Positions 5 through 55,325 of a DNA stretch of 64,000 nucleotides are shown one piece after another (position 1 is the first letter of the stretch; each line of letters begins with the position of its first letter). The DNA lies in NCBI GenBank assembly GCA_043788255.1, contig JAYVUA010000080.1:7488-71487 (forward strand), written 5' to 3'. Below the pieces are notes generated by a model that saw nothing but the letters and a program-made list of their open reading frames with translations, had not been told where the DNA came from and ran no database searches. This DNA is from Anaerolineales bacterium (lineage in GTDB: Bacteria; Chloroflexota; Anaerolineae; Anaerolineales; Villigracilaceae). The translations under genes were made by a program, and so were the position numbers.

Positions 5-907
5 ATGGGGGCGTTGGCTCTGGATGCCTTGCTTGGACAAACTGGTGAAGGCGATAAATGGAGTCAGGGCTGGGTGACTGAAGTGATCAGCCCGGTGCTT
101 TCGAAGGTGATGGCGTTGGAACTTTCGCCTTGGTTATTCTCGGCCATGCACCAGGAACGCTTCGTGGACATGAACAAATGGATCGAGGAGAAAGCCTGGA
201 TCGTGCTGCGTTTGCCATCGGGCGAGATGGGTCGTGAAGGCGCGCGCTTGACGGCAGGTGTCTTGTACAACGTTTTCGATGCCGCCTATCGCCGCGCGAC
301 CCTGGAAAAACCTGTGCCGTTTTATTTCATCGTGGATGAAGCACAGGAGATCGGTTCAGGTATGCGCTTGGAGTCCATGCTGGCGGAGGGAGCCAAGTTC
401 GGCGCGCGCATGTTCGTCTTGGCACAGTCCTTATCCATGATGCGCAAGGTGGAAGGTATGGAGCCGGTCGTGCAGGCCATGCTGGCGAATACCTCCACGC
501 AGATGTTCTTCTCGCCGGATCCCGAAGATGCTGACTTGATCCGCGCTACGCTGAGTTCCACGGTGCGCTATGGAAACATGACGCTTGATCTGCCCTCTTT
601 GCAGTGCTGGTTGCGTGCGCGTATTGGCGGTCGCTGGCAGCCGCCGACCTTGACGCAGATCAAGCCCTTACCGCGTGCAGATGCTAGTCGGGTAAAGGCA
701 TTGATCGAGGAAGTGATCGCTTCACATCCTGAAGATTATCTGCCCGCCGATGGCTGGCAGGAAAAGGCCTCCAAAGCTTTGGAGGAAATGCTTCCGCCGG
801 CATTATCCAAACTATTGGATGAATTCCTCGCGGTGCGTTTGGAAAACCAGGAAGCAAGGGTTTCGCAGCCCGCGCCACAAGATGACGACCGCAGGCTGGG
901 TTTCTGA
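5..907 (+). CDS. Type IV coupling protein (VirD4/TraD/TraG-like) C-terminal part; 5' end outside window
   Basis: Walker-B-like FYFIVDEAQEIG followed by LAEGAKFGARMFVLAQSL and AMLANTSTQMFF, typical of the TraD/VirD4 C-terminal domain. Confidence 0.8.
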   Translation: MGALALDALLGQTGEGDKWSQGWVTEVISPVLSKVMALELSPWLFSAMHQERFVDMNKWIEEKAWIVLRLPSGEMGREGARLTAGVLYNVFDAAYRRATLEKPVPFYFIVDEAQEIGSGMRLESMLAEGAKFGARMFVLAQSLSMMRKVEGMEPVVQAMLANTSTQMFFSPDPEDADLIRATLSSTVRYGNMTLDLPSLQCWLRARIGGRWQPPTLTQIKPLPRADASRVKALIEEVIASHPEDYLPADGWQEKASKALEEMLPPALSKLLDEFLAVRLENQEARVSQPAPQDDDRRLGF

Positions 908-4626: not shown

Positions 4627-5448
4627 TCATCTCGCCTTTATTGGGCTGGTTTTTCGCCTTTGAGTAAGCACAATGGAAATAATAACCGCCAAATAGCTCA
4701 AATAGGCAACGACCTCAGTTAAAGATGGGTTGCCGTTGTACCCGACCAATGCTTTCAGAAGCAAACCCATCTCACTTTTGTCGCTCAAAACCCCATTGAT
4801 ATCCCAAAGATTCTCGATCACTGAGGGGATGACACCTGCTTCATTAAACTCATGAATTCCCAATCCTACCAACCCTGCCGCAAAAACAATCAACAGGATA
4901 TTTGTAGCGCCAAAGAACCCACGCAGGCTGAGTTTTATGGTGGAAGTAAATAACACCCATCCCAAAATCGTCGCGATTAACAGTCCAAGCAACGCGCCTA
5001 AAAAGGTTTGTAAAGGGCTGGATGTCAGCCTTGCGGCCAGTAGAAATAACGCCAATTCAATGCCTTCACGAAACACTGCCAGAAAGGCCAGAGCGAACAA
5101 AGCCTTCTGCCCATTCCTCAACGTTGCCTGGTTGGTTTGTTCCTCAATTTCATTCTTGAGGGTACTTCCATGATTCTGCATCCACAGGATCATCCAGGTG
5201 AGTACGCCGGCGGCAAGCAGCATGGCGACTCCTTCAAAAACCTCCTCGCCTTTGCCCTCAAATTCCATACCAAGTAAATTGAGTGCGATTGCTGCCAGGA
5301 AGCTCAACAACACCGCCAGCCCCACCCCGCGCCAGACAACACCATTCAATTCTGTGCGTTTTATTTTGAGCAATACTCCCAACACGATTCCAATTATGAG
5401 GGCGGCTTCCAACCCCTCTCGCAGAGATAATAGAAAACTTGCAAGCAT
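4627..5448 (-). CDS. FTR1-family iron permease (EfeU/FtrC-like)
   Basis: Two RExxE motifs (LREGLE, FREGIE); ~7 TM segments; YNGNPS C-terminal motif. Confidence 0.92.
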   Translation of the reverse strand: MLASFLLSLREGLEAALIIGIVLGVLLKIKRTELNGVVWRGVGLAVLLSFLAAIALNLLGMEFEGKGEEVFEGVAMLLAAGVLTWMILWMQNHGSTLKNEIEEQTNQATLRNGQKALFALAFLAVFREGIELALFLLAARLTSSPLQTFLGALLGLLIATILGWVLFTSTIKLSLRGFFGATNILLIVFAAGLVGLGIHEFNEAGVIPSVIENLWDINGVLSDKSEMGLLLKALVGYNGNPSLTEVVAYLSYLAVIISIVLTQRRKTSPIKAR

Positions 5449-5469
5449 TGTATATAAACCTCCAGGTTT

Positions 5470-5934
5470 TTATGGGATCCAATTGGACAACACGTTCACA
5501 ACCAGATCTGGATTTGCGGGGTCATTTGTTTTGAGATGAATCCCAAAGTTGTGCGGACCATCCATCCCTTCGTGCATCATGAAAATAGCAGATTCAACGA
5601 TCGTGCTTTCGCCAGGCTTGAGTACCATCGAACCGATGGTAAGTTGAGGGGGTCAGCATCCCTCCAGGACTTCAACGAACGGTTCTTCCTTGAAACGCAG
5701 CACGCCGTCGCCTGTGTTGGTGACTTTTATCGCAAAGGTTTTATTGACTCCGAATTTCACATCGCCATAATCAATCCTTTGCTGATCGACTGTAATGAAT
5801 GGCGTTCCACCACCATCTCCGCCGCCTCGATTAGCGAAGAAGAAAGCAGCGATGATTAACAGGACACCGCCAATAACTACAAGTGCCCAGGGAAAACTTT
5901 TCCTTTGTTTTTGTCTCTTAATTTTTTTGCTCAT
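5470..5934 (-). CDS. DUF1573-like Ig-fold membrane-anchored protein, probable selenoprotein (in-frame TGA at 5655-5653)
   Basis: ORF track stops at ...VEVLEGC*, but the frame continues PPQLTIGSMVLKPGESTIVESAIFMMHEGMDGPHNFGIHLKTNDPANPDLVVNVLSNWIP to TAA at 5472-5470, just before the FTR1 RBS; hairpin 11 nt after TGA. Confidence 0.72.
5623..5641 (-). promoter_or_regulatory. Candidate bacterial SECIS element
   Basis: mRNA UGA-CCCCCUCAACU-UACCAUCG-GUU-CGAUGGUA: perfect 8-bp stem starting 11 nt after UGA, G-first apical loop. Confidence 0.65.
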
Positions 5935-5943
5935 AGTGCCTCC

Positions 5944-6945
5944 TTAATTGTCATATTCAAACTGGAACGAATATAGGTATGCGATCAAATCCCAGATTTG
6001 TTCTTCGGTGAAAATCGAGCCCCACATGGGCATGCCTGTCCCCATGCCGCCGCGCAGGATCTTGCCCTGTAATAATGCGGGACTGGCACCGAGCATCCGT
6101 GTTGGGTTTGTGAAATTAACAGGCGCCTGCATCATCATATTGTCTGCCCCTGTCATTGTCTGCATAGATGATGCACCCACCGCTTGCAGGTCATCGGCAA
6201 AGACTCCGTCGCCTGCACCGTTCTCGCCGTGACAGGCGGCACAGTTTTGGGTATAGAGTTGTCCTCCATTTGTTAGTGATTCTTTTGTTGTATTCGATTG
6301 CCAGATGTAAGCAACCACATCCCATCGTTGTGTTTCAGTGAGTGAAGTTCTATTCAGTTCATCGAATACTTGATAGGGTGAGCGTGTGCGGTAGTAATCA
6401 GCAGATCGGTCAATTAGCAAATTGGTTACTAACTTCTGCCCGCTGATTGCTGACGGTTGACTGCTCGGAATAACAGGCGCGTTGTGAGGAGCGTCAAGGT
6501 TGAGGTCGAGGGAAACATAAAGAGGTGGAGAAACAGGCTCAGGAGCCTGTCCTGAGCTTGTCGAAGGATCCGAGGGTGAACCGCCGACTTCTATCGTGCC
6601 GCGCATCCGCCAGTGATTGAGTCCGCACCAGCGCGTGCAGAAGAAGGTGTAAATCCCAGGCTTGTCAAAGATCAACGTAAGGTCAGTCACTTTGCCAGGC
6701 AGGATATCCACGCCTTCCATTTCCATCTGACCAACTGCAAACCCATGAACAACATCATCAGAGGTGAAACGTAAATGAAGCGGTTCGTTGACGTCCGCCT
6801 GAATGACATCGGGATTCCACCCGCCATTTTCCGACACTTGGGCATGGATCAGCGGTGTGCTTGACCAAAAGAAAAGCGGCGCGCCAATGGCAAGAAAAAT
6901 CCCTGCGATGATTAAGATGCGTGAGAGGAGTTCCGAACGCTTCAT
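5944..6945 (-). CDS. CuA-type cupredoxin (COX II-like) + cytochrome c fusion protein
   Basis: Start ATG 6945 overlaps upstream TGA; DVVHGF...FFCTRWCGLNHWRM CuA-like motif; CAACH heme-c motif with distal GMPMW. Confidence 0.85.
   Translation of the reverse strand: MKRSELLSRILIIAGIFLAIGAPLFFWSSTPLIHAQVSENGGWNPDVIQADVNEPLHLRFTSDDVVHGFAVGQMEMEGVDILPGKVTDLTLIFDKPGIYTFFCTRWCGLNHWRMRGTIEVGGSPSDPSTSSGQAPEPVSPPLYVSLDLNLDAPHNAPVIPSSQPSAISGQKLVTNLLIDRSADYYRTRSPYQVFDELNRTSLTETQRWDVVAYIWQSNTTKESLTNGGQLYTQNCAACHGENGAGDGVFADDLQAVGASSMQTMTGADNMMMQAPVNFTNPTRMLGASPALLQGKILRGGMGTGMPMWGSIFTEEQIWDLIAYLYSFQFEYDN
6545..6567. repeat. REP-like element (CCTTCGACAAGCTCAGGACAGGC) inserted in frame in the interdomain linker
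   Basis: Minus-strand sequence encodes PSTSSGQA; recognised from memory as a widespread short interspersed repeat. Confidence 0.55.
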
Positions 6946-8273
6946 AGGAGTAACCAGAGCATGACCAGTGTGGTGATGAAGCAAAATACGATGACAGGAG
7001 TTGAGGATGCTTTTATTTCGTTCGCGGCTTTTTGCGCAGTGCGCGCAGACCAGATCAAGCCGCCAACCAATGCAAGTGTTTGCGCGGGTGCAAGAACGGA
7101 CGTGAGCATCGGTTGCCACGCGGCGTTTGCCGTGCCGAATAAATCCCAGCCGAGACCCAGCGGATCGGAGAGAGCGGCGATGATGTAGGATGCATTGGTT
7201 AACACGAAAGATAAGCTGAATGCAACCCAGAACATCAAGCCGAGAGGAATGAGGGCTGTTGCAAGAGAAGCAAATCGTTGTTTCAGTGGAAGGGGGCTTT
7301 TCGTCTGTAGGATGCCAAGTGTGAAGAGTCCAGGAAGAACAACAAAGATAATCGCAAGAAAAATAACGGCATATATAAACCATGCGCTTGTACCAACATT
7401 GTATGCCGCATCTTTAAGTATGCCCCACGGACCAAGTAGTACACCCGCGTAGATCATTGCCGAACCGAGCATGATGAAGGCTTTGAAGGCTTCGTCCATT
7501 CGTGTGGATGGTTTGGCAAGGTCGGCGGAGAAAGGGCGCAAGTTGACGGCAATGTTGTCATGCGGACAGGTGCGGATACACTCCATGCACAGACCGCAAT
7601 ACGTGTTCTTCGTCAAACCTCCAGGAAAGACATCCCAAGGGCAGCCATATCCATTGGCTGAACCATTGTAGCAGGGCTTACCTTCACAGGTCACACAGAC
7701 CTGCTTGTCTTTGATTCGTAATTCGATGGGAGCAGTCTGGGAATACAAACCGATAAATCCGCCAACGGGACAGAGATAACGGCAAAAGGCGCGGCGTTCG
7801 AAGATGGTGCTCAGTCCAACGGCGGCGAAGAGCATGGCGGCAAGGACAATGCCCGTGATGTTTGGAGTCGTGAGCAGGACACTGCTGAAGAGAGCCAACA
7901 GAAGGAATGAAATATTTTGCAACCAGATGTTGCGGAACAATTTTGGCACACGCAAGTTGAGCCATTTCGGTTTTTTGTCAGGTGGAGCAAGTATCGCACC
8001 GCGTTGCAGCCACTCACCAGGCAATGGAATTGGACAGACCGCGCACCAGCCGCGTCCGAAAAATGGGACTGCAACGAGAATGAGGATAGCCCACCATGCG
8101 ATCCATACAAAGACAATGCTGAAGTTGTGACTTCCAACAGGCGTGCCGATAAGGCCTGCAAGAATGGCAAAGATATACCCAACCAGCATAACGATAAATA
8201 CGGCTAGTTGAGGATAGTGGCTCTTCAACGCATTTTTTATAAAGGGGATACGGGTAAGTTCGATCTTCGCCAT
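6942..8273 (-). CDS. Membrane polyferredoxin (4Fe-4S binding; NapH/NosR/FtrD/YccM-like)
   Basis: GRGWCAVCP, RAFCRYLCPVGG, CVTC...C, CGLCMECIRTCPHDN plus multiple TMs. Confidence 0.88.
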   Translation of the reverse strand: MAKIELTRIPFIKNALKSHYPQLAVFIVMLVGYIFAILAGLIGTPVGSHNFSIVFVWIAWWAILILVAVPFFGRGWCAVCPIPLPGEWLQRGAILAPPDKKPKWLNLRVPKLFRNIWLQNISFLLLALFSSVLLTTPNITGIVLAAMLFAAVGLSTIFERRAFCRYLCPVGGFIGLYSQTAPIELRIKDKQVCVTCEGKPCYNGSANGYGCPWDVFPGGLTKNTYCGLCMECIRTCPHDNIAVNLRPFSADLAKPSTRMDEAFKAFIMLGSAMIYAGVLLGPWGILKDAAYNVGTSAWFIYAVIFLAIIFVVLPGLFTLGILQTKSPLPLKQRFASLATALIPLGLMFWVAFSLSFVLTNASYIIAALSDPLGLGWDLFGTANAAWQPMLTSVLAPAQTLALVGGLIWSARTAQKAANEIKASSTPVIVFCFITTLVMLWLLL

Positions 8274-8283
8274 AATAATAGAA

Positions 8284-8727
8284 TTAAGTTTTTTGCTTTA
8301 TGGAAATAATCACACCAACAACAGCCAGCAGGGCCAACCCAATGGAACGAAATAACCAGTGATTGGAGCCCACGTTCAACTTGCCGATCATGAAAGGGTG
8401 CATTGCACCACAAGTCACATTGCATCTGAAGCGGAACGAGCCTGGCTTATCGGCAACGAACGATAAAGTTTTGGTCTGACCAGGGTCGGCTTGAATGGAA
8501 ATATCATAGCCATCCATATACAATCCATGCACCACATCTGTACTGACAAGTTGAATATTCACTGTGTCACCAGGGTTGACTTTAAGCTCGTAGGGAGAAT
8601 ATGCAAATTGTCCCGCTTCAATCCGAAAGGTCCGCTTTTGAGGCGTGATGGGCCGAACTGGCAGTGGCGCAAAAGCCACTACCAGACCAGCCATGACAAG
8701 GAGGAGAAGAGTGAAGCGCGGGTTCAT
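8284..8727 (-). CDS. CuA-type cupredoxin with N- and C-terminal TM
   Basis: DVVHGL...FRCNVTCGAMHPFM; ATG 8727 four nt after the upstream stop. Confidence 0.85.
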   Translation of the reverse strand: MNPRFTLLLLVMAGLVVAFAPLPVRPITPQKRTFRIEAGQFAYSPYELKVNPGDTVNIQLVSTDVVHGLYMDGYDISIQADPGQTKTLSFVADKPGSFRFRCNVTCGAMHPFMIGKLNVGSNHWLFRSIGLALLAVVGVIISIKQKT

Positions 8728-8731
8728 CAGC

Positions 8732-9178
8732 TTATGGAATATTGGAAGGTCCGTACTTGGCGTAGGTAGCATCCACATATGCCCTGGCTTTTGCAGGCGT
8801 CTGCCCCTCTTGCAACATCCGCATAACATCCTTGGTAATATCTACACAGATCGAACAGCCAAGTGCATGATTATCGAATTTTATAGTACCCTGTGCATCT
8901 ATATCTGAAACATAGCAGTCATAATTCGATGTATGTCCAATATCGCCACAGCCGCAATAACAGGGAATATCTTTCATTATGTCAGGGTTGATGGAGGCAA
9001 ATTGATAAGCCTCCTGTACTGCCACAGGCGCGGCTTGCACGTCCGCAGGCATTTGATCCATCGGCATCATGTAAAGATGGACATCACTTGATTTTGAAGT
9101 TGAACAGGCGGAAATTGCAGTGGACAACAAAACCGCTATGAGTGAAAGAAATAAAAATTTGCGTGACTTTGAAATCAT
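8732..9178 (-). CDS. PCYCGC-motif lipoprotein
   Basis: Lipobox AISAC; IPCYCGCGDIGH..NYDCY and CSIC motifs. Confidence 0.88.
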   Translation of the reverse strand: MISKSRKFLFLSLIAVLLSTAISACSTSKSSDVHLYMMPMDQMPADVQAAPVAVQEAYQFASINPDIMKDIPCYCGCGDIGHTSNYDCYVSDIDAQGTIKFDNHALGCSICVDITKDVMRMLQEGQTPAKARAYVDATYAKYGPSNIP

Positions 9179-9257
9179 ATTGGGACTCCAGTATCGGATA
9201 GCCCAATAGTAGTCTGATAGTTCAATAGTCTCCAGCGCAGGATAGCGTAATGGCGTA

Positions 9258-9273
9258 TGCGCCAAATGGCTTA
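9258..9273. promoter_or_regulatory. 7-2-7 operator copy (TGCGCCAAATGGCTTA)
   Basis: Matches consensus TARGCARAATNGCYTA; 80 bp upstream of start 9178. Confidence 0.6.
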
Positions 9274-9343
9274 TGATGAACGTCATAGCGAGCGCTTTCT
9301 AGAAGATTACAGTGCTCACCTATATTTGAAATATGAAGAATAT

Positions 9344-10064: not shown

Positions 10065-11654
10065 TTAATTTTCGATTTTGTAATTTCTCATCATACCTGC
10101 ATCTTCATGTTCGAGATTGTGACAGTGATAAAGAAATGTCCCGGCATAATTCTCAAAGCGGACAAGTACCTGAACCTTTTCTCCAGGCATGACCAGCACG
10201 GTATCCTTCCAGCCATCATCCACAAAACCAGCACTTAATTCCTGATACATCGACTCGTTACCCAGTGCAAGCTCGCGTCCGAGCACCTGAAATTGCACAC
10301 CGTGAATATGCATCGGATGCGGCATTTGCATATTCATCATACCCATTCCCATGCCGCCTCCGCCACCTTCGAGATTGGCAAATTCCCAAATCTCCAAATC
10401 GCCAAGCTGCACGATCTCATCACAGGCAACCGAATCCATTTCGAACACGCGACCGTTGATGGTATGAGTCATGCCCTGCATCGCCAGTGTAAACGAGCGT
10501 GGGTTATTTCGATTAACTGCATCTTCCGCACGATGACGCGCAATGATTGAAAGCTGAGCAGGGAGCGGGAGAACATCCGCGCCTTTCTCTCCGACTTTCA
10601 AACTCAGGATGTCGAATGGCGCGCCATTGGGCAGGCTGGAACCTCCGCCCATCATTCCTCCACCATTATCAAACCCTGAAAACGGTAAACTGACCAATCG
10701 CATTTCACTACCTGTTCGCTCACTAAAATCCACCCAGAGTTCCACCCGTTCACTAGGCGCGAGCGTAATATAGTCACGGGTTCCTGGCGCTTCCAGCAAA
10801 CCGCCGTCGGTGGCGATCACGGTTAGAGGTGTGCCATCCTGCCATGCGAGTTTATAGATGCGTGAGTTCGAGCCATTTAACAATCGCAAGCGGTACGCGC
10901 TGGCTTTAACATCCAGCGCCGCGTTTGGCGCACCGTTGACCAGAATCGTATCGCCCAGAAAACCAATCATCGAATCCAACATGCCGTTCGCCAGATAAAC
11001 CATCTCGTTTTGCGAGTCGAACGTACGGTCCTGTATTACCAGCGGCAGGTCATACTCACCAGACGGCAATCCCAGCGCGGCTTCCTCGTCGTCGCTGACG
11101 ATGAACAAACCCGCCAATCCGTAATACACCTGCGGGGCAGTCAACTGATGCGGATGCGGATGAAACCAATACATGCCTGCGCGGTTAATCACCCGAAAAT
11201 CATATTCAAAACTTTCGCCGGGCGCAATCGCATAACGCGGATGCCCGTCCATCTCTTCTGGAATTAACAGTCCGTGCCAGTGGATGATGGTGGGATCGGG
11301 AAGTTCGTTCTTAAGCCGAACCTGGACTCGTTGACCTTTCTTTACCCGAAAAATGGGGCCAAGATAGGAGTCGCTCAACGTCTGGATTGATTCTGCGCTT
11401 CCCTCCCGCACTGCTGACTGATACCACCAAACGGGCGTTTCTGCCCCTGAGAAAATAGGCAGCGTGGTTCGTCCAGCAGTCAAGTCAACGGCAAGGGAAA
11501 CAGGTATAGACGCGAGTGGCGTCAGGATAACGGGAGCAGTTGTCGGGTTCGCGAAGCGTGAAGCGGGCGGAATGAGTCCACAGGCACTGAGAGTCAATGT
11601 CCCTGCGCCCATTCCCATCAGTTTGATAAAGTCCCTGCGAGTGAGTCTGTTAAT
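10065..11654 (-). CDS. Three-domain multicopper oxidase (CueO-like), Tat-exported; probable ATT start
   Basis: HWHG, WFHPH, HPMHIHG, HCHNLEHEDAGMM motifs; the twin-Arg signal LTRRDFIKL lies upstream of the first ATG (11618), in frame from ATT at 11654, 9 nt after AAAGGAG. Confidence 0.9.
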   Translation of the reverse strand: MNRLTRRDFIKLMGMGAGTLTLSACGLIPPASRFANPTTAPVILTPLASIPVSLAVDLTAGRTTLPIFSGAETPVWWYQSAVREGSAESIQTLSDSYLGPIFRVKKGQRVQVRLKNELPDPTIIHWHGLLIPEEMDGHPRYAIAPGESFEYDFRVINRAGMYWFHPHPHQLTAPQVYYGLAGLFIVSDDEEAALGLPSGEYDLPLVIQDRTFDSQNEMVYLANGMLDSMIGFLGDTILVNGAPNAALDVKASAYRLRLLNGSNSRIYKLAWQDGTPLTVIATDGGLLEAPGTRDYITLAPSERVELWVDFSERTGSEMRLVSLPFSGFDNGGGMMGGGSSLPNGAPFDILSLKVGEKGADVLPLPAQLSIIARHRAEDAVNRNNPRSFTLAMQGMTHTINGRVFEMDSVACDEIVQLGDLEIWEFANLEGGGGGMGMGMMNMQMPHPMHIHGVQFQVLGRELALGNESMYQELSAGFVDDGWKDTVLVMPGEKVQVLVRFENYAGTFLYHCHNLEHEDAGMMRNYKIEN

Positions 11655-12045: not shown

Positions 12046-13425
12046 CTACATTCTCATTGCCATCGGAAGCGTGAACAGAATCACATTCATAATAGTGAGG
12101 ACGACCATCAAGACTGCATAAGGGACAAAGGTTCCCCAGACCTTACCGTCGGCGCTGTTGTTTTTCGCGATGCGATAGGCAACATAAAGCGACCCGATGA
12201 AACCAAGCGCCAGCAGCCCAAATTGCAGGAATTGAATGGTAGCCATATCGAGAATGGCGAGGGAAGCTCCGTGAAATTCCATGCCGAATAATCCCATTGC
12301 CGTATAGTAAATGGATTTGCCTTCCGCCAAAAGATGGAACAGGTTGTGAGCAATATGACCTGCCATGTCCAACGCGATGATGGCATACCCGAAGCGGGCG
12401 AAATTTTCCACGAGAGAGACTTTGTTGAACTTACCTGCAACCCAGGAAGTAAAGCCAAGTAAAGCCACTGGCAAAATAATGGCGGTTGCAAAAGTAATAC
12501 TGAACGTGACTGCGTAATTGGTTGTGCCTGTAACCTGCTCCAGCCAATTTAGCACCTTGCCCCACACTTCGAGCATGGTCACATTCTGTACGAACACAAT
12601 ACCCATGATGACCGCTGAAAGGAAAGCTTCTTCAACTTTGGGCTTGCGGATGAACCATAATTCCTTTGTGGGCGGGCGCATCGTCAATTGAATGGAGTTA
12701 TTGGGGCAGCCTTTGATACATTCCGCGCAGAGCACGCAGTTGGCGCTGGAAGTCATGGTCTTGGGAAATTCGTACAAGGGACAGGGCATGGAATTATCTG
12801 TGCCTTTATAACATGCGGCCACTGTGCAGGTTGCACAGATATCAGGAGTTCCACGGAGGCTCAACATACCGTTTCGCGCGTAGTTACCGGATAATCCGCC
12901 GAGGAAACAAACGTAGCGGCAGAAGGTACGGCGTTCATAAAAAGCGCCAGAAACGATCACGCCCGTGGTTAATGTCAACATCAAGATACCAGAACCGAGC
13001 GGATTTTCCACCACGCCCCAGACATGGTCACTCCAGGTGATGAAGATGAAGAGTGCATCAATGATCCAGATGCCGTATTTTTTCAGGAACTTCGGCACAG
13101 GACGTTTGTTACCGACAAAGTTTTGAACAAGATCATTGATCTTGGCAAATGGACAAATGGCACACCAGAAACGTCCCAAAAACAGGAAGATGATCGGGAT
13201 CAACGGCCACCACAACACCCAGGTCAGGGCGGTACCGAAGTTGTCATGCGCGGCTTCGGGTCCAAGAATCAGCTCGAACATGATCAGCATAAAAATGATC
13301 AGAGTGGGCCATTGAATAATGCCGGGATACCAGCGGCTGCGCAGGAAATTATTAATCAACTTGTTGTCGAGCAGATTTCTGCCATTCAGCCAGGATGGGT
13401 TTGGAGTGTTGATCGGTGTTGTCAT
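12046..13425 (-). CDS. Second membrane polyferredoxin (4Fe-4S binding)
   Basis: GRFWCAICPF, RTFCRYVCFLGG, CATC, NCVLCAECIKGCPNN; paralog of 6942-8273. Confidence 0.88.
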   Translation of the reverse strand: MTTPINTPNPSWLNGRNLLDNKLINNFLRSRWYPGIIQWPTLIIFMLIMFELILGPEAAHDNFGTALTWVLWWPLIPIIFLFLGRFWCAICPFAKINDLVQNFVGNKRPVPKFLKKYGIWIIDALFIFITWSDHVWGVVENPLGSGILMLTLTTGVIVSGAFYERRTFCRYVCFLGGLSGNYARNGMLSLRGTPDICATCTVAACYKGTDNSMPCPLYEFPKTMTSSANCVLCAECIKGCPNNSIQLTMRPPTKELWFIRKPKVEEAFLSAVIMGIVFVQNVTMLEVWGKVLNWLEQVTGTTNYAVTFSITFATAIILPVALLGFTSWVAGKFNKVSLVENFARFGYAIIALDMAGHIAHNLFHLLAEGKSIYYTAMGLFGMEFHGASLAILDMATIQFLQFGLLALGFIGSLYVAYRIAKNNSADGKVWGTFVPYAVLMVVLTIMNVILFTLPMAMRM

Positions 13426-13450: not shown

Positions 13451-14125
13451 TTACTTGCGAATAACAAGAGACTTGCGTTTGAGAAAAGCCGCTGCCGCAA
13501 TCACAGTGCCATTAATGCCAAAGAAGCCAGCTAGTACCGCGTAATTCAAGCCAAGCGCGCGGGCAATCTCAATCGGGAAGTCAACTTCTGTAGTTTCGCC
13601 ATCGATCGTGAAATGCACATTGAACATCCACTCGCCGGATGCATCAAAGTGCATTTCACCAGCATATTCGCCAGATTCCATTGTGGGTTCAAGCATGATC
13701 GTCAGAGCTTCTTCAGTATGTTCATCTGCCGCAGGTTCGTTGGGTTTCATCACACCTGTGGATGGGACTTCCGTCGCCATGTCCATTCCACTTGAATTAC
13801 TGGTCATCACACCGACGGATGGAGCCTCAGTTGCCATTTCCATTTCGCTGTTTTCATCATGGGCAGACATTCCCTCAACTGGCATGGCAGAGACTTCCAC
13901 TTCCGCGTTTGAAACGGGCATGCCCATCGAATCCACGATCTGGATGTGGAATTCGTTTTCACCAACCATCGCAGGTTCCTTAAAGACAAGTTCAACCTGG
14001 TACCCGTTTGCTGTTGCAACATATCCATTTTCAGCACCACCATCAGCCAAGGCCATTGTGGGCGTTACCAACAAAATAGCGGTGACCAATAACACCGCCA
14101 TATTTCTGCGCATCATTCTGTTCAT
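13451..14125 (-). CDS. FixH/YtkA-like exported protein with Met/acidic insert
   Basis: Signal peptide; VGENEFHIQI...PVSNAEV...GEYAGEMHFDASGEWMFNV pattern; C-terminal TM. Confidence 0.7.
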   Translation of the reverse strand: MNRMMRRNMAVLLVTAILLVTPTMALADGGAENGYVATANGYQVELVFKEPAMVGENEFHIQIVDSMGMPVSNAEVEVSAMPVEGMSAHDENSEMEMATEAPSVGVMTSNSSGMDMATEVPSTGVMKPNEPAADEHTEEALTIMLEPTMESGEYAGEMHFDASGEWMFNVHFTIDGETTEVDFPIEIARALGLNYAVLAGFFGINGTVIAAAAFLKRKSLVIRK

Positions 14126-14220
14126 GAGCAATTTGCCTCCTGTAATCAAAGTTAATCGAAGTTGACAAATCTTATCGTGTCAATGCAAATCTCCAGAGCG
14201 CGATATGGCGTGATTTATCG

Positions 14221-15904: not shown

Positions 15905-18541
15905 TTACCTGACACTGAATTTTGGTTTGAACCCACGCAAGCGATTCGCATTGCCCACAACCGTCACAGACGAGAACGCCATCGCCGCGCCCGCGATCAT
16001 TGGACTAAGCAATACGCCGAAGAATGGAAAGAGCAATCCCATTGCAACGGGGAGCCCCAGCACGTTATAGAAAAACGCACCAACAAGGTTTTGATAAATA
16101 TTGGACATCGTAGCGCGACTGACTTCAATCGCAGTGACCACGCCTTTAAGGCTGCCTTTGATGAGCGTGATGTCTGAGGCTTCGATGGCAACATCTGTGC
16201 CTGTGCCGATGGCAAGACCGACATCCGCTTGCGCCAGTGCGGGCGCATCGTTGATGCCATCGCCAACCATTGCGACTTTTTTGCCTTCGGCTTGAAGCAG
16301 GTGAATATTATTTGCTTTATCTTCGGGCAGCACTTCAGCCAACACGCGCGTCACACCAACTTTACGCGCAATCGCTTCAGCGGTGCGGCGGTTATCACCC
16401 GTGATCATCACCACCTCAATGCCCAAGGCTTGCAGGGCTTTGATGGCTTCGGCGGAATCTTCCTTGACTGTATCCGCCACCGCGATGATGCCTGCGGCCT
16501 TGCCATCGAGTGCAATGAACATCGGAGTCTTCCCATCGTCGGCAAGTGATTTTGATTTTTCTTCGAGCGAACCAAGCATGATATTTTCGCGGTTCATCAA
16601 TTTGAGATTCCCGATCAATATTTTTTTATCTTCTACTTTTGCTGAAACGCCATGGCCTGGAATGGCTTCAAAGTCTTTGACTTCCATCAATTCCAATTTA
16701 CGAGCCTGCGCACCATCGACAATCGCCTGCGCCAACGGATGTTCACTGACTTTTTCAATGGACGAAGCTACTTTCAACAACTCATCATCTTTCAAGATCG
16801 GCTGGTCGCTGATGATGATGTCAGTCAATTCAGGTTTACCTTTTGTGATCGTACCTGTCTTATCCAACACTACGATCTGAATGGCACGCGCGGTTTGTAA
16901 TGCTTCACCCGAGCGAATGAGAATTCCATGTTCCGCGCCCTTGCCGATGCCGACCATCAGACTCATGGGTGTGGCAAGCCCTAATGCACACGGACAGGCG
17001 ATAATGAGCACGGTCACGCTTGTGACGAGTGCATAAACGAGTTGCGGTTGCGGTCCAATCACGAACCAGATGACGAAGGTCCACACGGCCAGGATCATTA
17101 CAATAGGAACAAAATAACCTGAAACCGTGTCAGCCAGTCTTGCGATTGGCGCTTTCGAATTCTGTGCATCCTGCACCATCTTTACGATTTGTGCCAGTGC
17201 GGTATCTTTTCCAACTTTTGTAGCACGAAACTTGAATGCGCCAGTTTTATTGATCGTCGCGCCAATGACTTCATCGCCCATCTTTTTGGACGCTGGCAGT
17301 GACTCACCTGTCAGCATGGACTCATCCACAGCAGAGCTGCCTTCGACTATCACTCCATCCACAGGAACTTTCTCGCCAGGGCGGACCTGAATCACATCGC
17401 CGACTAAAACTTCCTCAACAGGCAAGTCCATCTCTTTACCATCGCGAATTACGCGTGCGGTCTTCGCCTGTAGACCCAATAATTTTTTGATTGCTGAACT
17501 GGATTGTCCCTTGGCACGTAATTCAAGCGCTTGTCCCAACACAACCAATGCAATCACGACTGCAACAACATCATAAAAAGGTTCTGATGTTCCTTCGGGA
17601 AAAACGGATGGCAACAGAATCGCAAAGGTTGAATATAACCATGCCGCCCCCGTGCCGAGCGTGATTAATGTATTCATGTTTGCCGAGCGATGTTTGAATG
17701 CTGCCCATGCGCCAGTGAAAAAATCACTGCCTGACCAGAACATGACGGGCAATGTCAGAAGCGCGGTCGCGCCCCATAATAATCTCAACGAGTCCATGTT
17801 CCAATCACGCAGGATTGGCATAACCTGATAATAAGCAGTTATCATCACAAACACAGAGACCGCAGCTGCAAACCAAAACTTGTTCATCAGCTTTCGATAT
17901 TCACGCGCGTGCGCTTCTTCCTGCTTATCCACGGGCGCATCGCTTGTTGAAGCGCGCGGTTTATAGCCCCAGGTTTCAATCGCTGCATTCAACTGCGAGA
18001 GAGTTGTGTTTTGTGGAAGATAGTCCACCGTCGCTTCCTGAGTAGCGATGTTGACGTTCGCATTCAAAACGCCCGCTGTGGATTTCAACTCATCTTCAAT
18101 GAATTTTACACATGAGGCGCAGCGCAGATTCTCAATGCCGATGCGTGTCTGTGCACCATCCACGGTATAGCCAGCGGATCGAATGGCGCCTGCCAGCCCG
18201 ACGAGATTGATTTTTTGCGGATCGTAATCGAGTTGCACCAAACCTGCCCCTGCATTCACGACCACCCGATCCACTCCATTCAGGGATAGCAAACCTGCTT
18301 CAAGCTTTGCTGCAGGTCTGACCATAGGCAGGTCTGCAACGGGTAGTTCGATGCGGGAAAGAGTCCGCTCAGGGTTGAAGCCTGTTGTTGCTGATGTCAT
18401 CACATAACGGTGCGGATCCTTGTCGAATTGATCCGCACAGGATTGAGAGCAAAAATAAAACATCTGCCCCATGTGCTCGCGTTTAGCAAAAGCGCTTTGG
18501 GGTTCGATTTCCATTCCACAAACTGGGTCATGTACTTTCAT
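15905..18541 (-). CDS. copA: Cu(I)-translocating P1B-1 ATPase with N-terminal YHS and HMA domains
   Basis: CPC in TM6, [21 protein letters not shown] and MAFSS motifs; DPVCGM YHS; LRCASC HMA. Confidence 0.95.
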
Positions 18542-20068: not shown

Positions 20069-20830
20069 CTACGCCTTTTGCATGGTGTGTCCACTCAGGT
20101 AACCCAGATAGGCTGGTACGAGCGGCAACACACACGGCGAAAGAAATGACAATAAACCTGCGAGAATCGCAGTTAAATAAGTCGGCGCCGCGGCATAGGC
20201 CGCGAAAGACTCAATGTAATACCCATTCTTGAATGCCCAGATGGCAATCAGGCTCATAGTGTTCGTCAGCAACAACATGCCAATCGTAATGATAAATAAG
20301 CCGCTGGCAATCTTAAAATATTTTTGATAAGGTCTCATGTGCTTAAGCCAGACCGAAGCGCGTTCCAAGCCCAGCGCCAAAACAAGAAATGGAATTCCCA
20401 ACCCAAGCGAGTATCCTGAAGATAACCACATCGCCTGCCCCACCGTCTGCTGGCTGAGTCCCATTGTCAGGATCGCGCCCAGGGTCGCTCCAATGCATGG
20501 GCTCCAGCCTGCGGCAAAAAAAATGCCCATGAGGGCAGACCCGCCATACGTCCCGCGTTGACCTGAGTATTGGGAGCGCGTGTCCGCATAGAACCAGGGA
20601 ATGCGAATCACTTCCAGAGTAGCCAATCCAAACATGATCACGATCACGCCGCCGAATTGCGCGATGACTCTTTTATACGCGCCAAATAGTTGACCGAGCG
20701 CCGTGACTGAGCCGCCCCAGCCAACAATAAAGACCAGCGAGAAACCGAGCACGAAAAGGAGCGCGTGCAAAAATATTTTCAATCTATCAGTTTGAGTTGG
20801 GACAAGTGGAATTGCGGTTTCAGATGACAT
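20069..20830 (-). CDS. ccdA: CcdA/DsbD-type thiol-disulfide transporter, circularly permuted
   Basis: FVLGFSLVF, GWSPCIGATL, YSLGLGIPF; the SFLSPCVLPLVPAYL motif is at the C-terminus. Confidence 0.85.
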   Translation of the reverse strand: MSSETAIPLVPTQTDRLKIFLHALLFVLGFSLVFIVGWGGSVTALGQLFGAYKRVIAQFGGVIVIMFGLATLEVIRIPWFYADTRSQYSGQRGTYGGSALMGIFFAAGWSPCIGATLGAILTMGLSQQTVGQAMWLSSGYSLGLGIPFLVLALGLERASVWLKHMRPYQKYFKIASGLFIITIGMLLLTNTMSLIAIWAFKNGYYIESFAAYAAAPTYLTAILAGLLSFLSPCVLPLVPAYLGYLSGHTMQKA

Positions 20831-20912
20831 AAGCCTGCCTGTATAAAATGGGATGGATATATCATAAGCAAAACCCCGCCCCTGCATGAGCGCAGGATGG
20901 CGGGGCTATGGA

Positions 20913-20942: not shown

Positions 20943-22637
20943 TCACAATCGGACCGTTAGCCTGCTGCCCTTTCCCAAAGTGGATTCCATCTCGAGCCGC
21001 GCACCGATCAGGTCGGCGCGTTCATGCACGCCCAACAAACCGAAGTGTCCGCTCGGGGCAAGTTCAGTGGGACTTTTCGGCATGATGAAGCCATTGCCGT
21101 TGTCACTGACTTCCATCTTGATTTCCGAATCTTCAAAGGTAATTTTCAAATCGGCATGGCTGGCCTTGGAATGTTTGACCACATTACTGACTGCTTCCTG
21201 CGCGATTCGATAGAGCGATAATTCCTCTTCGCGTGAGAGGCGGCGTTCCTCTCCTCTTTTTTGAAAATCCACAGTCAATTGATTATTATGAGCAGTTTCG
21301 CGGGTTAACATATCAAGTGCGGTAACGAGCCCCAGATCTTCGAGATAGATGGGACGCAAGGCTCGTATCAGGCGGCGTAGGTTTTCAACAGTTTGTTCCG
21401 CAAGACCCTCAAGTTCCTGAAGTGAGCGTTTTCCGTTCTGGTCTTTGACCAACTTTTCGGCCAATTGCACGCGTTGTTTCAATGCGATCACCGATTGAAT
21501 GGTTTCATCATGCAATTCACGCGCCAGCCGCATGCGCTCATCTTCCTGCGCGGAAGTGATCGCGCCGATGTAATCATGCAATCCCTCCTGGGAAGCCTGT
21601 ACCTTGCGCGACATCTCAGTCAATTCCATTTGCAGATGCTGCACTTCCAAAATCCCGCCGACGGATTCTTTGATGGCTTCAAAGTCACCCCATGCCAGCG
21701 CGGCGGCCTTAGATTCAAGTTTTTGCAATGGCTGTACAATTTGCTTTGCACCAAACCAGATTGCGATCAGAGCAAGGATGAAAGCAGGAACCATGACAAG
21801 GGGGGCCATCTGGGTTAACTGCAACGATGGACTGATCACCATTTCCCATTCTTCCTCGGTGATCAACGCCCAGCCTGTCAATACGATGGGGCTATATGCA
21901 ACGACGTGTTCTGTCTTATCCTTCTTGACATAAAGCACGCCGCTATTTCCTTGCATTGCCTCTGTAACACCTGGGTGGTTGGGTTCCAAAGTTTCCTGTG
22001 CAAGTGCGCCGCTCACGAAAAGCAATCGACGCGATTTGTCGAGCAGGTAGATGGTTACATGGCTGCCTGTTGGATAAGTGGTAGAGAGGGTTTTAATGGC
22101 AAGTGTTTCAGGAGAAAACGCGCCCGCCACAATCACATTGCGGGAGGCGGAGTATGCTGAAATGATAACGAAAAGTTGGTTTGAGCTGGGGTCAAGGATT
22201 GGATCGGAGAAAATAGGTTCACGGTCCGAAGGAGAAGCGAGAGAAAGACTTTGTGCGTTTTGAGAAACCCATCCCCAAAAACTGTCATTGCCTGTATTGG
22301 CGAGCAAGCGTCCATCTGAATCGAGAAAGGCTATTTCACCATTGAAATCATTTGCAAGATCATTCGTAGTTGCAAAGATTTCTTCAAAAGTTAGCTCCTC
22401 AGAAGATAGAACAGCCATACTGGTAATTGTAGCCACGCGATGGTGTAATTCAGATTCGAGCGCGGCGGCAGAAGATTGAACCGCGCGCTCATCACGCTCG
22501 CCAACGAGGGCACGCATATCCTGCTGGTGCATGTTGACACCGCCAAAAGCGATTACCAACAGTAATACAGTAAGTGGCAGGATTGTGACTGCGAAAAGTT
22601 GTGTGAGGCCGCGCCAGCCAGGCAGGAGACGTTTCAT
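20943..22637 (-). CDS. Sensor histidine kinase (Cache-like sensor, HAMP, HisKA_3)
   Basis: ERMRLARELHDE H-box; LYRIAQEAVSNVVKHS; DNGNGF; GHFGL. Confidence 0.93.
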   Translation of the reverse strand: MKRLLPGWRGLTQLFAVTILPLTVLLLVIAFGGVNMHQQDMRALVGERDERAVQSSAAALESELHHRVATITSMAVLSSEELTFEEIFATTNDLANDFNGEIAFLDSDGRLLANTGNDSFWGWVSQNAQSLSLASPSDREPIFSDPILDPSSNQLFVIISAYSASRNVIVAGAFSPETLAIKTLSTTYPTGSHVTIYLLDKSRRLLFVSGALAQETLEPNHPGVTEAMQGNSGVLYVKKDKTEHVVAYSPIVLTGWALITEEEWEMVISPSLQLTQMAPLVMVPAFILALIAIWFGAKQIVQPLQKLESKAAALAWGDFEAIKESVGGILEVQHLQMELTEMSRKVQASQEGLHDYIGAITSAQEDERMRLARELHDETIQSVIALKQRVQLAEKLVKDQNGKRSLQELEGLAEQTVENLRRLIRALRPIYLEDLGLVTALDMLTRETAHNNQLTVDFQKRGEERRLSREEELSLYRIAQEAVSNVVKHSKASHADLKITFEDSEIKMEVSDNGNGFIMPKSPTELAPSGHFGLLGVHERADLIGARLEMESTLGKGSRLTVRL

Positions 22638-23326
22638 TCTTCTTCGATGATATTGCCCGAACCCTGTGAGATCAATCCCAGAGAGACGCCACGCATGACA
22701 GCTTCAGTTCGGCTGGTGGCTTGCAGTTTGGCGAAGATATGCGCGAGATGCCCCTGCACGGTACGGTCGCTGATGCTAAGCTGTACACCAATGGCTTTAT
22801 TGGTGAATCCTTTTGCAGCAAGTCGCAACACATCCAGTTCACGATCCGTCAGCGGTTCGACAATTTTCTTCTCTGTTCCTTTGAATATGTTGGACATCAA
22901 TTTGCGCGTGATGGCAGGGTCAAGTGCAGACTTGCCCTCATTTACATCGCGCACAGCTTGAATAAGATCGTCGGTTTGTGCTGTCTTGAGCACATAGCCA
23001 TTCGCGCCTGCCTGCAGGACTGCCATCACATATGGATCGTCATCGTAGGCCGTTAGGATTAACACGCCCACTTCTGGCAAATGTGCGCGCACCCAGCGAG
23101 TCACTTCGATACCACTGGCTTTGGGCATTTGGATATCCAGGACCGCCACATCAGGTTTGTGCTTCTGAATGAGGGCTTGGGCTTCTTCGCCATCTCCCGC
23201 CTCAGCTATGACCTGAAGATCGCTCGCGCTTTCAAGCAATTGGCGCACCCCTGCGCGGACGATGTGATGATCGTCAGCCAGAAGAATGCGGATTTTGGTT
23301 TTTGATTTGCTCAATGACTTTGCCAT
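22634..23326 (-). CDS. NarL/LuxR-family response regulator
   Basis: ILLADDH, VLDIQMP, LTDRELDVL...TNKAIG...TVQGH HTH. Confidence 0.93.
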   Translation of the reverse strand: MAKSLSKSKTKIRILLADDHHIVRAGVRQLLESASDLQVIAEAGDGEEAQALIQKHKPDVAVLDIQMPKASGIEVTRWVRAHLPEVGVLILTAYDDDPYVMAVLQAGANGYVLKTAQTDDLIQAVRDVNEGKSALDPAITRKLMSNIFKGTEKKIVEPLTDRELDVLRLAAKGFTNKAIGVQLSISDRTVQGHLAHIFAKLQATSRTEAVMRGVSLGLISQGSGNIIEEE

Positions 23327-24047
23327 AACTAAGTGGTTCCAATTCTTGATTGAGTGCTTGAGTCTGAAAAATATAAGGGAAGGCGAGCCAGACGATACCA
23401 AGACCAGCCAAAAGTCCAGTGATGAAGCGCATGAGAGAATTGAACGAACCGAGCGCATCGCCTGCGTAGAATGTCGCAGAGAATGAATTATTCGTCAGTA
23501 TCACAAGCCATTGATTTGTATCACGAAAGCCCTGTCCAATGCCAGCGAAATCGCTCAGCATATGCGTACCACCATCCATTATAAGAGGAAGCAGAAGCAA
23601 AATGAATCCGAACCAGGATAAGGTTTTGATCCTGCGTCGAAATGGAAACCAAAGTGCTGCAAACATCCAGACACTGGTGTAAAACGAGATCATGCGATCC
23701 GACCAGGCGACCTTCCAGCCCATGCTTTCATTACCAATAAATTGACGGAGAATCATGGGGTTAATAGTATCCTGCCAGACGGCTTGAACTTCACTCAACG
23801 AATACATGGTTTTTTCGCCAAAGAGAAAGAATGACCGTTCTGGAAGTTGATGACAAAAAAATGAGTAAATGAAGTATATGGCCCTTCCTGCTCCGATCCA
23901 ACCGATGTATATGAAGAAGGGTGCAAGAAAAGGCGCGAATACCCACAGTCCATAAACGATCAGAAAAGTCTCAAACCAATGGATGCCAATCCATTGAAAG
24001 ATGGACTGTTTGGGTTTTGGAAGAGCCGGTGTTGTGATGGTAGACAT
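23274..24047 (-). CDS. DUF2085-like membrane protein
   Basis: YSFFCHQLPERSF; MDGGTH; RFITGLLAG. Confidence 0.8.
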   Translation of the reverse strand: MSTITTPALPKPKQSIFQWIGIHWFETFLIVYGLWVFAPFLAPFFIYIGWIGAGRAIYFIYSFFCHQLPERSFFLFGEKTMYSLSEVQAVWQDTINPMILRQFIGNESMGWKVAWSDRMISFYTSVWMFAALWFPFRRRIKTLSWFGFILLLLPLIMDGGTHMLSDFAGIGQGFRDTNQWLVILTNNSFSATFYAGDALGSFNSLMRFITGLLAGLGIVWLAFPYIFQTQALNQELEPLSYGKVIEQIKNQNPHSSG

Positions 24048-32386: not shown

Positions 32387-32400
32387 AAAGCTATTCACCT

Positions 32401-33318: not shown

Positions 33319-33335
33319 CACTGACACTTAAACAT

Positions 33336-35125: not shown

Positions 35126-35141
35126 TGGATTGGAGGAATCA

Positions 35142-36293: not shown

Positions 36294-36297
36294 TTAA

Positions 36298-38458: not shown

Positions 38459-38463
38459 TCACT

Positions 38464-41137: not shown

Positions 41138-41158
41138 ATATTTTTCTCGGAGTCAATC

Positions 41159-54325: not shown

Positions 54326-54345
54326 TTGTTTTCTCCGTGTGTGGG

Positions 54346-55239: not shown

Positions 55240-55325
55240 GCTTTCCTTTCGACGCGGCAAACTATAACGGCAGACGGGGCTGCCGTTTAGATACTTAAGT
55301 ATTGATGTTGGGTATTGTTTGGGGT

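Follow-up and report, generated by a model that had tools for sequence, protein, structure and literature searches.

Does the TGA codon at 5655..5653 of this stretch of Anaerolineales DNA end a gene, or is it read as selenocysteine (Sec)? The stretch, 64 kb long and called the window below, carries on its minus strand a 93-codon open reading frame (ORF) that closes with ...EEPFVEVLEGC, immediately before this TGA. Past the TGA the same frame stays open for 60 further sense codons, running PPQLTIGSMVLKPGES...FMMHEGMDGPHNFGIHLKTNDP...NWIP (in full, PPQLTIGSMVLKPGESTIVESAIFMMHEGMDGPHNFGIHLKTNDPANPDLVVNVLSNWIP), to a TAA at 5472..5470. A first-pass annotation, made from the letters alone, had described this continuation and proposed a hidden selenoprotein with a Cys-Sec pair. 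Translation of 5934..5470 bears out the description, and the proposal is supported by the alignment of the UGA with Cys, by the conservation of TGA throughout the clade, by the frozen synonymous sites of a downstream hairpin and by the SelB genes of relatives. On these comparative grounds it is very likely that 5470..5934 is a genuine bacterial selenoprotein gene, whose 154-residue product would be made by recoding of the UGA through SelB and a selenocysteine insertion sequence (SECIS).

The in-frame TGA and the frame beyond it

The complete gene would comprise 154 codons and a TAA (5470..5934, minus strand), with the UGA as the predicted Sec codon 94, and homologues of ~154 aa align with it end to end. 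Its ATG (5934..5932) is preceded by the ribosome-binding site (RBS) AAGGAGG (5939..5945, minus strand), which overlaps the TAA of the upstream CuA-cupredoxin/cytochrome c gene; an AAGGAG motif likewise stands ahead of the ATG in 20 related loci. At the other end the extension halts just ahead of the RBS of the gene for the FTR1 permease, as the first-pass annotation had noted, with 7 nt between its TAA and the GGAGG at 5463..5459 and about 21-22 nt between the TAA and the FTR1 ATG (5448). The UGA itself (5653..5655, minus strand) directly follows the TGC codon of Cys93 (5656..5658, minus strand), the first residue of the predicted vicinal Cys-Sec pair. An open frame of 60 codons after a stop would arise by chance in roughly 5% of cases.

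The read-through protein, with Cys in place of the stop, was used as a query against 5.8 billion proteins and retrieved 1,454 homologues. G-C-C-P-P is present in every full-length homologue (~154 aa, no more than 71% identical), and the TGA of the window aligns with the second Cys of this invariant motif. No full-length Sec form was present among the 5.8 billion proteins. The only matches closer than the full-length Cys forms were three 93-aa fragments (P0081, from the window itself, P0115 and P0120) and a protein of 106 aa (P0041) that shows 'W' at position 94, where the underlying DNA is a TGA translated with genetic code table 4. The DNA loci behind the closest fragments (L001-L003) read TGC-TGA in every case. 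The Thr or Trp that would have marked a simple nonsense mutation, according to the first-pass annotation, was not found in this column apart from that lone table-4 reading.

A scan of GTDB with one genome per species yielded 196 relatives. In the best 80 of them, from which the codons were counted, TGC/TGT-TGA was found 80 times out of 80, as it was in the window and in L001-L004. About 66 assemblies account for these 80 loci, the label being Anaerolineales, Anaerolineae or Chloroflexota in nearly every case, and the samples behind the TGA-form loci were taken from groundwater, soil, sludge and the subsurface. Even a metagenome scan seeded with a profile of the Cys form returned the TGA form in 78 of its best 80 loci. 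The pooled set holds 160 TGA-form genes (142 distinct). In all 160, codon 93 is TGC or TGT and codon 94 is TGA, and the next stop follows after exactly 60 codons; the residue corresponding to Cys93 is also an invariant Cys in the Cys forms.

Synonymous divergence among the TGA-form genes is high (pS about 0.6-0.7), and the pairwise pN/pS over the 60 codons after the TGA, 0.123, is close to the value of 0.157 over the 49 codons before it. It follows that the extension is translated and that selection constrains it just as it does the codons before the TGA. Pfam matches (HYDIN/VesB Ig-like, OCRL ASH, DUF1573) run across the TGA junction without a break. The features that characterize bacterial selenoproteins, namely a UGA aligned with Cys and conservation of the UGA and the downstream frame under protein-level selection, are thus both found here, and the alignment of homologues, which the first-pass annotation had called for, gives a column of TGA, in 160 genes, or of Cys, with conserved sequence beyond it.

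Two trivial explanations were considered and rejected. The window sequence recurs letter for letter in contigs from four independent runs on sediment metagenomes (depth 11-26) and is therefore not an assembly error; sequencing or assembly error is ruled out by these four runs together with the recurrence of the TGA in genome and metagenome loci. Global reassignment of UGA (genetic code tables 4 or 25) is excluded by the use of TGA as an ordinary stop for 18 of the 61 long ORFs of the window, the neighbouring FTR1 among them. A mechanical scan of TGA-joined ORF pairs in the window revealed no other candidate resembling coding sequence.

A SECIS-like hairpin and the decoding of the UGA

The TGA is followed by a SECIS-like element (5604..5658, minus strand) made up of an apical hairpin at 5641..5623, whose core ACCAUCG-GUU-CGAUGGU (5640..5624) has a G-U-U loop, and a predicted lower helix in which UGCU (5658..5655) pairs with AGCA (5607..5604). 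In the window the hairpin, UACCAUCG-GUU-CGAUGGUA, has 8 bp, begins 11 nt past the UGA, folds at -8.9 kcal/mol and belongs to the minimum free energy (MFE) fold of the element; it is also part of the MFE fold in 117 of 133 distinct sequences. The first-pass annotation had described exactly this 8-bp stem. It stands for the window but not as a conserved feature, as the eighth pair (U14-A32, with the U of UGA numbered 0) forms in just 50 of the 133 sequences and the conserved stem has 6-7 bp. What is conserved is a 7-bp core with a GUU loop that begins 12 nt past the UGA, its 17 nt folding at -7.6 kcal/mol. Consensus folding with RNAalifold gave an apical helix from C16-G30 to G21-C25, extended by A15-U31 in most sequences and closed by the loop G22-U23-U24. 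It also gave a lower helix of U-3:A51, G-2:C50, C-1:G49 and U0:A48, which takes in the U of the UGA, and the further pairs C3:G43 and C4:G42. Variation within these helices is limited to one-sided GC-to-GU changes that keep the pairing.

Positions 15-31 (ACC AUC GGU UCG AUG GU) are essentially invariant in the 74 distinct 72-nt sequences of the genome set and in the 142 distinct genes overall. Thr99, Ile100, Gly101 and Ser102 each use one codon (ACC, ATC, GGT and TCG, respectively) in 140-142 of the 142 sequences, whereas the flanking Pro95, Pro96, Leu98, Val104, Pro107 and Thr111 use 4-6 codons each in the same set. Such single codons amid free synonymous variation indicate a constraint at the RNA level on top of that on the protein. 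Distant Cys forms encode the same or a similar peptide by other codons and have lost the stem: P0093/L168 reads ACA ATC GGT TCG ATG GCG, P0031/L170 reads ACT ATT GGC TCG ATG ACT, and L098 reads ACC ATT AGC ACG. The choice of nucleotides is thus not imposed by the peptide. Of the Cys forms, the two nearest to the Sec clade (P0002/L165 and P0050/L166) look like recent Sec-to-Cys conversions with a relic SECIS; in them the hairpin core ACCATCGGTTCGATGG follows TGC-TGC or TGT-TGT (L165 2209-2270 and L166 6271-6330).

The family thus offers a natural series for studying Sec/Cys exchange, from Sec forms with a frozen SECIS through recent Cys converts that keep the hairpin to older Cys forms without it, and its usefulness is increased by Sec and Cys paralogues that occur side by side. 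On one contig a Cys paralogue and a TGA paralogue stand directly in tandem (L168 6001-6960), and on another the Sec copy takes the usual place in the operon, with the Cys copy beside a DsbD_TM gene (L170 6001-6465 and 11698-12171). In several GTDB assemblies the TGA form is present two or three times, e.g. in JACRBJ01, JANMSY01 and QZIJ01. The Cys-form gene of L098 has an in-frame TAA 19 codons past its Cys-Cys pair (KPGSSA*VSSPDF, about 2211-2300), with conserved sequence beyond; unlike the clean TGA forms, it is probably a pseudogene or the result of a sequencing error.

In E. coli fdhF, the minimal SECIS is a stem-loop of 17 nt at a distance of 11 nt from the UGA, its loop containing G23 and U24. 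The element described here also satisfies the general description of a SECIS, a stem-loop directly 3' of the UGA, at a SECIS-like distance and with a G in the apical loop, and its geometry is almost the same as that of the fdhF element. Both hairpins lie directly past the UGA inside the coding sequence, with a spacer of about 11-12 nt, an apical stem-loop of about 17 nt, G and then U at loop nucleotides 23-24 counted from the U of UGA, and a lower helix that includes the UGA. They differ in the loop, which is a 3-nt G-U-U here and GGUC in fdhF, and no bulged U is evident here. Binding of SelB to this hairpin is predicted by this analogy.

Evidence for the remaining machinery comes from relatives. 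When 1.59 Mb of related DNA were searched by tblastn with approximate E. coli SelA, SelB and SelD queries, the sole match was a selB gene in a Chloroflexi metagenome-assembled genome (MAG), L035, located 6.3 kb from that genome's own TGA-form gene. Its 631-aa product matches the NCBIfam model TIGR00475 over its full length (354.9 bits against a cut-off of 242.25) and, used as a query, retrieved at least 120 SelB clusters from Anaerolineales/Chloroflexi at 74% identity or more, many of them named 'selenocysteine-specific translation elongation factor [Anaerolineales bacterium]'. SelB and the truncated gene also appear as accession pairs 100-2313 numbers apart in four MAGs (MBI5944740.1 / MBI5945270.1, MBE0680730.1 / MBE0680830.1, MCL4270558.1 / MCL4272431.1 and MBI5823391.1 / MBI5825704.1), the first pair coming from the MAG behind L005, the top-ranked relative of the window gene by E-value. 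Judged by consecutive accession numbering, each pair appears to lie in one genome, so that these four MAGs appear to encode SelB. SelB has been found in Anaerolineales single-cell genomes, and Anaerolinea thermophila UNI-1 has SelB without an annotated selenoprotein dehydrogenase (PMC4959059); tRNASec has been described in Chloroflexi (PMC5389517). Contigs of the four source metagenomes of the window, compared with the L035 selB at 80% identity, matched it in short GTPase-motif fragments only, and no tRNA-Sec was found near 60 related loci or in the full 1.59 Mb of related DNA. An ARAGORN 'tmRNA' on one related contig (L064 10348-10765), enclosing two tRNA-Ala genes, is almost certainly a false call over the tRNA pair.

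Several observations weigh against a selenoprotein at this locus. The 64-kb window contains no tRNA at all (ARAGORN) and no Rfam family, the Rfam scan giving no match for the hairpin element either, and SelA, SelB and SelD are absent from the 37 window proteins scanned. The folding energy of the 76-nt region is not exceptional (z = -0.78 against shuffles). There is no compensatory covariation in the hairpin, because its sequence is invariant, and its core, which the two nearest Cys forms retain, is not strictly confined to genes with TGA. The copper-handling role discussed below is, in addition, argued from motifs and gene neighbourhood only. Folding energy by itself says little, and what decides the case is comparison: 160 related genes share the TGA, the 60-codon extension and the hairpin.

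The same comparative evidence bears on the other ways in which this locus might be read. A true stop at the UGA, leaving a truncated 93-residue product and 60 codons of pseudogene remnant or non-coding spacer, is what every annotation pipeline reports, and the lack of Sec machinery within the 64-kb window would agree with it. Yet termination at this point would split a single β-sandwich domain mid-way, and a remnant would gather stops and frameshifts, whereas the 60 codons are intact in 160/160 genes with a pN/pS of 0.12 at nearly saturated synonymous divergence; a true stop is effectively refuted by this and must be considered very improbable. The extension could also be an independent small gene with its own start, since a 52-codon ORF at 5470..5628 begins with ATG. 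However, no RBS precedes the ATG at 5628, which is the Met of a conserved TIGSM strand and falls within the hairpin, and the Pfam matches span the junction. The Cys homologues are single polypeptides over both halves, which disposes of the independent gene that the first-pass annotation had kept in mind, and its probability is very small. Finally, the UGA might be read through as a residue other than Sec, either as Cys, inserted by a tRNASec-like tRNACys(UCA) of the selC* type, or as Trp or Cys, inserted by near-cognate tRNAs; the hairpin would then do no more than slow down termination. In E. coli, termination is known to be weak in the context UGA-C, and Cys is functional at this position in paralogues. 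SelB-dependent insertion of Cys by a selC* tRNACys has been shown in other phyla, but selC* was reported in Firmicutes, Thermodesulfobacteria, Nitrospirae and Proteobacteria and not in Chloroflexi, where tRNASec was (PMC5389517). Moreover, TGC or TGT would suffice for Cys without the cost of a conserved UGA and hairpin in 160 genes, Trp never occurs at this position in homologues, and the spacing and loop G are those of a canonical SECIS. We therefore regard read-through as another residue as improbable, and there is little doubt, from the comparative data, that the recoding would follow the standard SelB/SECIS route. A ribosome arriving at the UGA of codon 94 would meet the hairpin 12 nt downstream, whose G-U-U loop is predicted to recruit SelB-GTP-Sec-tRNASec; Sec would be inserted and the 60 further codons translated.

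The protein, its operon and a possible role in copper handling

The product of such recoding is predicted to consist of an N-terminal membrane anchor, a Gly-rich linker and one extracytoplasmic β-sandwich of the PapD/ASH/DUF1573-like kind. The anchor, about residues 16-34 (5833..5889, minus strand; MSKKIKRQKQRKSFPWALVVIGGVLLIIAAFFFANRGGGDGGG), follows a Lys/Arg-rich N-terminus and precedes the linker. A single hydrophobic helix in this setting suggests, by the positive-inside rule, that the N-terminus lies inside and the domain outside the membrane. The AlphaFold model of the closest Cys homologue, P0002 (pLDDT 86.4), has a helix at residues 16-34 and a nine-strand β-sandwich. Foldseek matched it to PapD-like/ASH/HYDIN Ig domains and to 2qsv, a protein of unknown function from Porphyromonas gingivalis (23% identity, rmsd 3.2), with no P19, Sco or PCuAC among the matches. 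A profile search of PDB sequences gave weak HYDIN matches alone and no metal-protein relative. The label 'DUF1573-like' given by the first-pass annotation holds at the level of superfamily and fold, as judged from these comparisons, but not as Pfam membership: the read-through protein scores 17.8 with PF07610 (DUF1573), below the cut-off of 26.1, and its best Pfam match is PF22544 (HYDIN/VesB Ig-like), at 23.1 against a cut-off of 25.5. Some homologues do carry precomputed PF07610 hits. No model in the NCBIfam scan recognizes the window protein.

The β-sandwich would carry the vicinal Cys93-Sec94 pair, in the motif G-C-U-P-P, together with M119, M120, H121, M124, H128 and H133. The latter belong to a His/Met patch, F118-M-M-H121-E-G-M124-D-G-P-H128-...-H133 (5536..5583, minus strand), whose columns are invariant or nearly invariant in two alignments (A2 and A3) and which makes a candidate metal site. 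The invariant residues are G92, C93, C/U94, P96, P107, G108, S110, F118, H121, G123, M124, G126, H128, H133, T136, N137, D138 and W152, M119 and M120 being nearly so. Both the membrane anchor and the Met/His patch had been picked out in the first-pass annotation and are recovered here, the former in the P0002 model and the latter in the alignment.

Upstream of the selenoprotein gene, all on the minus strand, lie a cupredoxin fused to cytochrome c (5944..6945; CAACH, CuA motif CTRWCGLNHWRM, Pfam COX2/Cupredoxin/Cytochrom_C), a membrane polyferredoxin (6942..8273; Fer4_5, NapH/FtrD-like), which holds the same position in related operons, and a second cupredoxin with a CuA motif (8284..8829; CNVTCGAMHPFM), whose real start is probably inside the ORF. 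They are preceded by a PCYCGC/CYCXC-family protein in the Cys form, CYCGC (8732..9286; Pfam PF13798), the first gene of the conserved module; its product scores 65 bits with the NCBIfam model 'CYCXC family (seleno)protein', below the cut-off of 90. Directly downstream is a gene for an FTR1/EfeU-type iron permease (4627..5448, minus strand), which ends with the ordinary TGA stop mentioned above. Both cupredoxins have the C-x3-C-x3-H-x2-M pattern of CuA sites, with VVHG upstream, and hits to C-terminal domains of COX2/NosZ. The recurrent order of the module is PCYCGC protein, cupredoxin, Fer4_5 polyferredoxin, cupredoxin-cytochrome c and selenoprotein gene. Among the 68 genome loci with enough flank for neighbours to be counted, the CuA-cupredoxin/cytochrome c gene stands upstream of the selenoprotein gene in 67 and FTR1 downstream of it in just 11. 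Of the tie to iron/copper uptake suggested by the first-pass annotation, the iron part is accordingly facultative, and the constant partner is the CuA-cupredoxin/cytochrome c gene.

How might such a protein serve its neighbours? The Cys-Sec pair and the His/Met residues may bind Cu(I), form a selenylsulfide redox couple on the outer face of the membrane, or both, and such a couple could reduce CuA cysteines or Cu(II) with reducing power from a DsbD/CcdA-type protein. The partners served would be the co-transcribed two CuA cupredoxins, one of them fused to cytochrome c, the NapH/FtrD-like polyferredoxin and the PCYCGC protein. The protein could supply CuA sites with copper or reduce it for them, in the manner of Sco or PCuAC; alternatively, it could serve as the metal-binding entry point to the electron chain of this module. 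A copper-handling role for the CuA module is the function that we prefer, although we would place it somewhat below even odds, and the narrower proposal of a selenium-dependent copper chaperone or reductant dedicated to assembling or feeding the adjacent CuA centres seems rather unlikely as yet.

A role in iron uptake has to be set against the copper-handling role. FtrABCD is an established iron-uptake system of Bordetella and Brucella, and the selenoprotein could act as the periplasmic metal-binding subunit of an Ftr-type system, replacing P19/FtrA and handing Fe (or Cu-assisted Fe) to FTR1, with the cupredoxins and the polyferredoxin carrying off the electron. In the window the gene directly precedes FTR1, about 21-22 nt away, and the operon mirrors FtrABCD in having FtrB-like cupredoxins and an FtrD-like polyferredoxin, with no P19 homologue in the Pfam and NCBIfam scans. 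On the other hand, FTR1 is found in so few of the loci in which the CuA-cytochrome c gene is nearly constant, Cys forms occur with the same module and no nearby FTR1, the ligand set of Cys, Sec, His and Met is typical of soft Cu(I) and not of Fe, and the surrounding island centres on copper. The Ftr-type role is weakened because FTR1 is facultative, and it appears doubtful.

The island in question is a run of copper/iron homeostasis genes of about 24 kb, mostly on the minus strand (window positions 4627-28000). Beyond the operon it includes small YHS and HMA genes (between about 9300 and 10000), two multicopper oxidases (10065-11618 and 25114-26196), a second Fer4_5 polyferredoxin (12046-13425), YtkA (13451-14149), a CopA-type P-ATPase with YHS and HMA domains (15905-18541), DsbD_TM (20069-20887), a two-component system of HisKA_3 kinase and LuxR-type response regulator (20943-23458) and a YncE-like β-propeller (26811-27938). 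The PCYCGC/CYCXC and YHS families have Sec-containing members in other phyla; with the DUF1573-like domain, three domain types of the island thus recur among predicted selenoproteins. The island lies between a TraG-like gene and a haem-biosynthesis cluster. The former, which occupies the left edge of the window (5-907, plus strand), encodes a coupling protein for type IV secretion of the TraG/TrwB type, and the matching Logan contig (L004 9383-13599) continues past it with a VirB4-like AAA_10 ATPase. It may be that the metal island is located beside or on an integrative conjugative element, which would fit a gene order around the module that is patchy from genome to genome. The haem cluster is complete (31085-42442, plus strand), with GluTR, porphobilinogen deaminase, HemD, ALAD, a radical SAM protein, UroD, ferrochelatase, a HemY-type oxidase and GSA aminotransferase; its presence shows that the window belongs to the chromosome of an organism that makes haem, in keeping with the cytochrome c domain encoded in the operon. 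Farther away are two tandem DUF4386 genes (53645-55260, minus strand), whose mechanical ORFs (53645-54550 and 54346-55260) overlap by about 200 nt, adjoined by a MalT-like LuxR regulator (55326-58046).

Significance and relation to known systems

With the stop read as a Sec codon, the databases wrongly list this protein as a fragment of 90-93 residues. Every GenBank copy checked is annotated as a hypothetical protein of that length, so the truncation by standard annotation that the first-pass reading had foreseen is a fact for its relatives. The family concerned is widespread: 160 sequences were recovered, the best 80 genome matches include about 66 GTDB species representatives, and a genome may hold as many as three copies. 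Bacterial selenoproteins are for the most part redox enzymes of the cytoplasm, and an outward-facing, membrane-anchored selenoprotein would, if confirmed, be unusual. A vicinal Cys-Sec pair with invariant His/Met residues, encoded together with CuA cupredoxins, also provides a testable link between selenium and copper. Should the chaperone or reductant role prove true, a protein present in up to three copies per genome across dozens of Anaerolineales species could be a major reason why this abundant lineage of sludge, sediment and groundwater keeps Sec machinery. 'Orphan' SelB genes like that of A. thermophila UNI-1 might be accounted for in this way as well, and selenium availability would be tied to copper handling or respiration outside the cytoplasm.

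This is not a new kind of system, because the recoding mechanism is standard and a DUF1573-type selenoprotein has already been published. Literature searches on selenocysteine with cupredoxin or polyferredoxin, and on PCYCGC, gave nothing relevant, and the family may have been listed earlier in selenoproteome compilations. A 'DUF1573 domain-containing protein' selenoprotein (PF07610, motif U-G-C) has been predicted in deltaproteobacterial symbionts of Olavius algarvensis, and YHS and CYCXC/PCYCGC selenoproteins from these symbionts are in the same review lists (PMC9312934, PMC13188914). In both cases the predicted Sec lies in a small PapD-like/DUF1573-type β-sandwich, at a Cys motif preceding a P-G strand, and the island of the window holds Cys versions of the YHS and CYCXC/PCYCGC proteins. 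However, the motif is G-C-U-P-P in 160/160 genes here and U-G-C there, which sets the present family apart, by motif, from the published one with its representative MDJ0815992.1. The hosts are Anaerolineales (Chloroflexota) here and Desulfobacterota there, and the window protein falls below the PF07610 threshold and has no NCBIfam model.

Vicinal Cys-Sec pairs can form an eight-membered selenylsulfide ring or chelate soft metals. An adjacent Cys-Sec after Gly is shared with mammalian thioredoxin reductase, which has a C-terminal G-C-U-G, and with the bacterial 'CU' proteins SaoL, SaoC and KCU-star (PMC13188914). The fold here is unrelated to theirs, and the pair is internal, before Pro-Pro and in a predicted extracytoplasmic β-sandwich, not in a flexible C-terminal tail or a cytoplasmic enzyme. 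With the FtrABCD systems of Bordetella, Brucella and Burkholderia the locus shares an FTR1 permease, a cupredoxin and a membrane polyferredoxin that are encoded together. It does not qualify as an operon of that type, since no protein of the operon matches P19/FtrA in Pfam or NCBIfam, the cupredoxins are of the CuA type, one of them fused to cytochrome c, and FTR1 is adjacent in a minority of loci (11/68).

A functional parallel may exist with the assembly factors of CuA sites. Sco proteins, with their Cys pairs, and PCuAC, with its His/Met motifs, reduce CuA cysteines and deliver Cu(I). Like Sco1/SenC and PCuAC, the window protein is small, predicted to be membrane-anchored and encoded beside CuA proteins; unlike them, it shows no relationship to either in sequence or fold, Sco having a thioredoxin fold and the window protein one resembling PapD/ASH/HYDIN. 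Any analogy would thus be one of function, suggested by a chalcogen pair and invariant His/Met residues that the window protein combines in a single domain.

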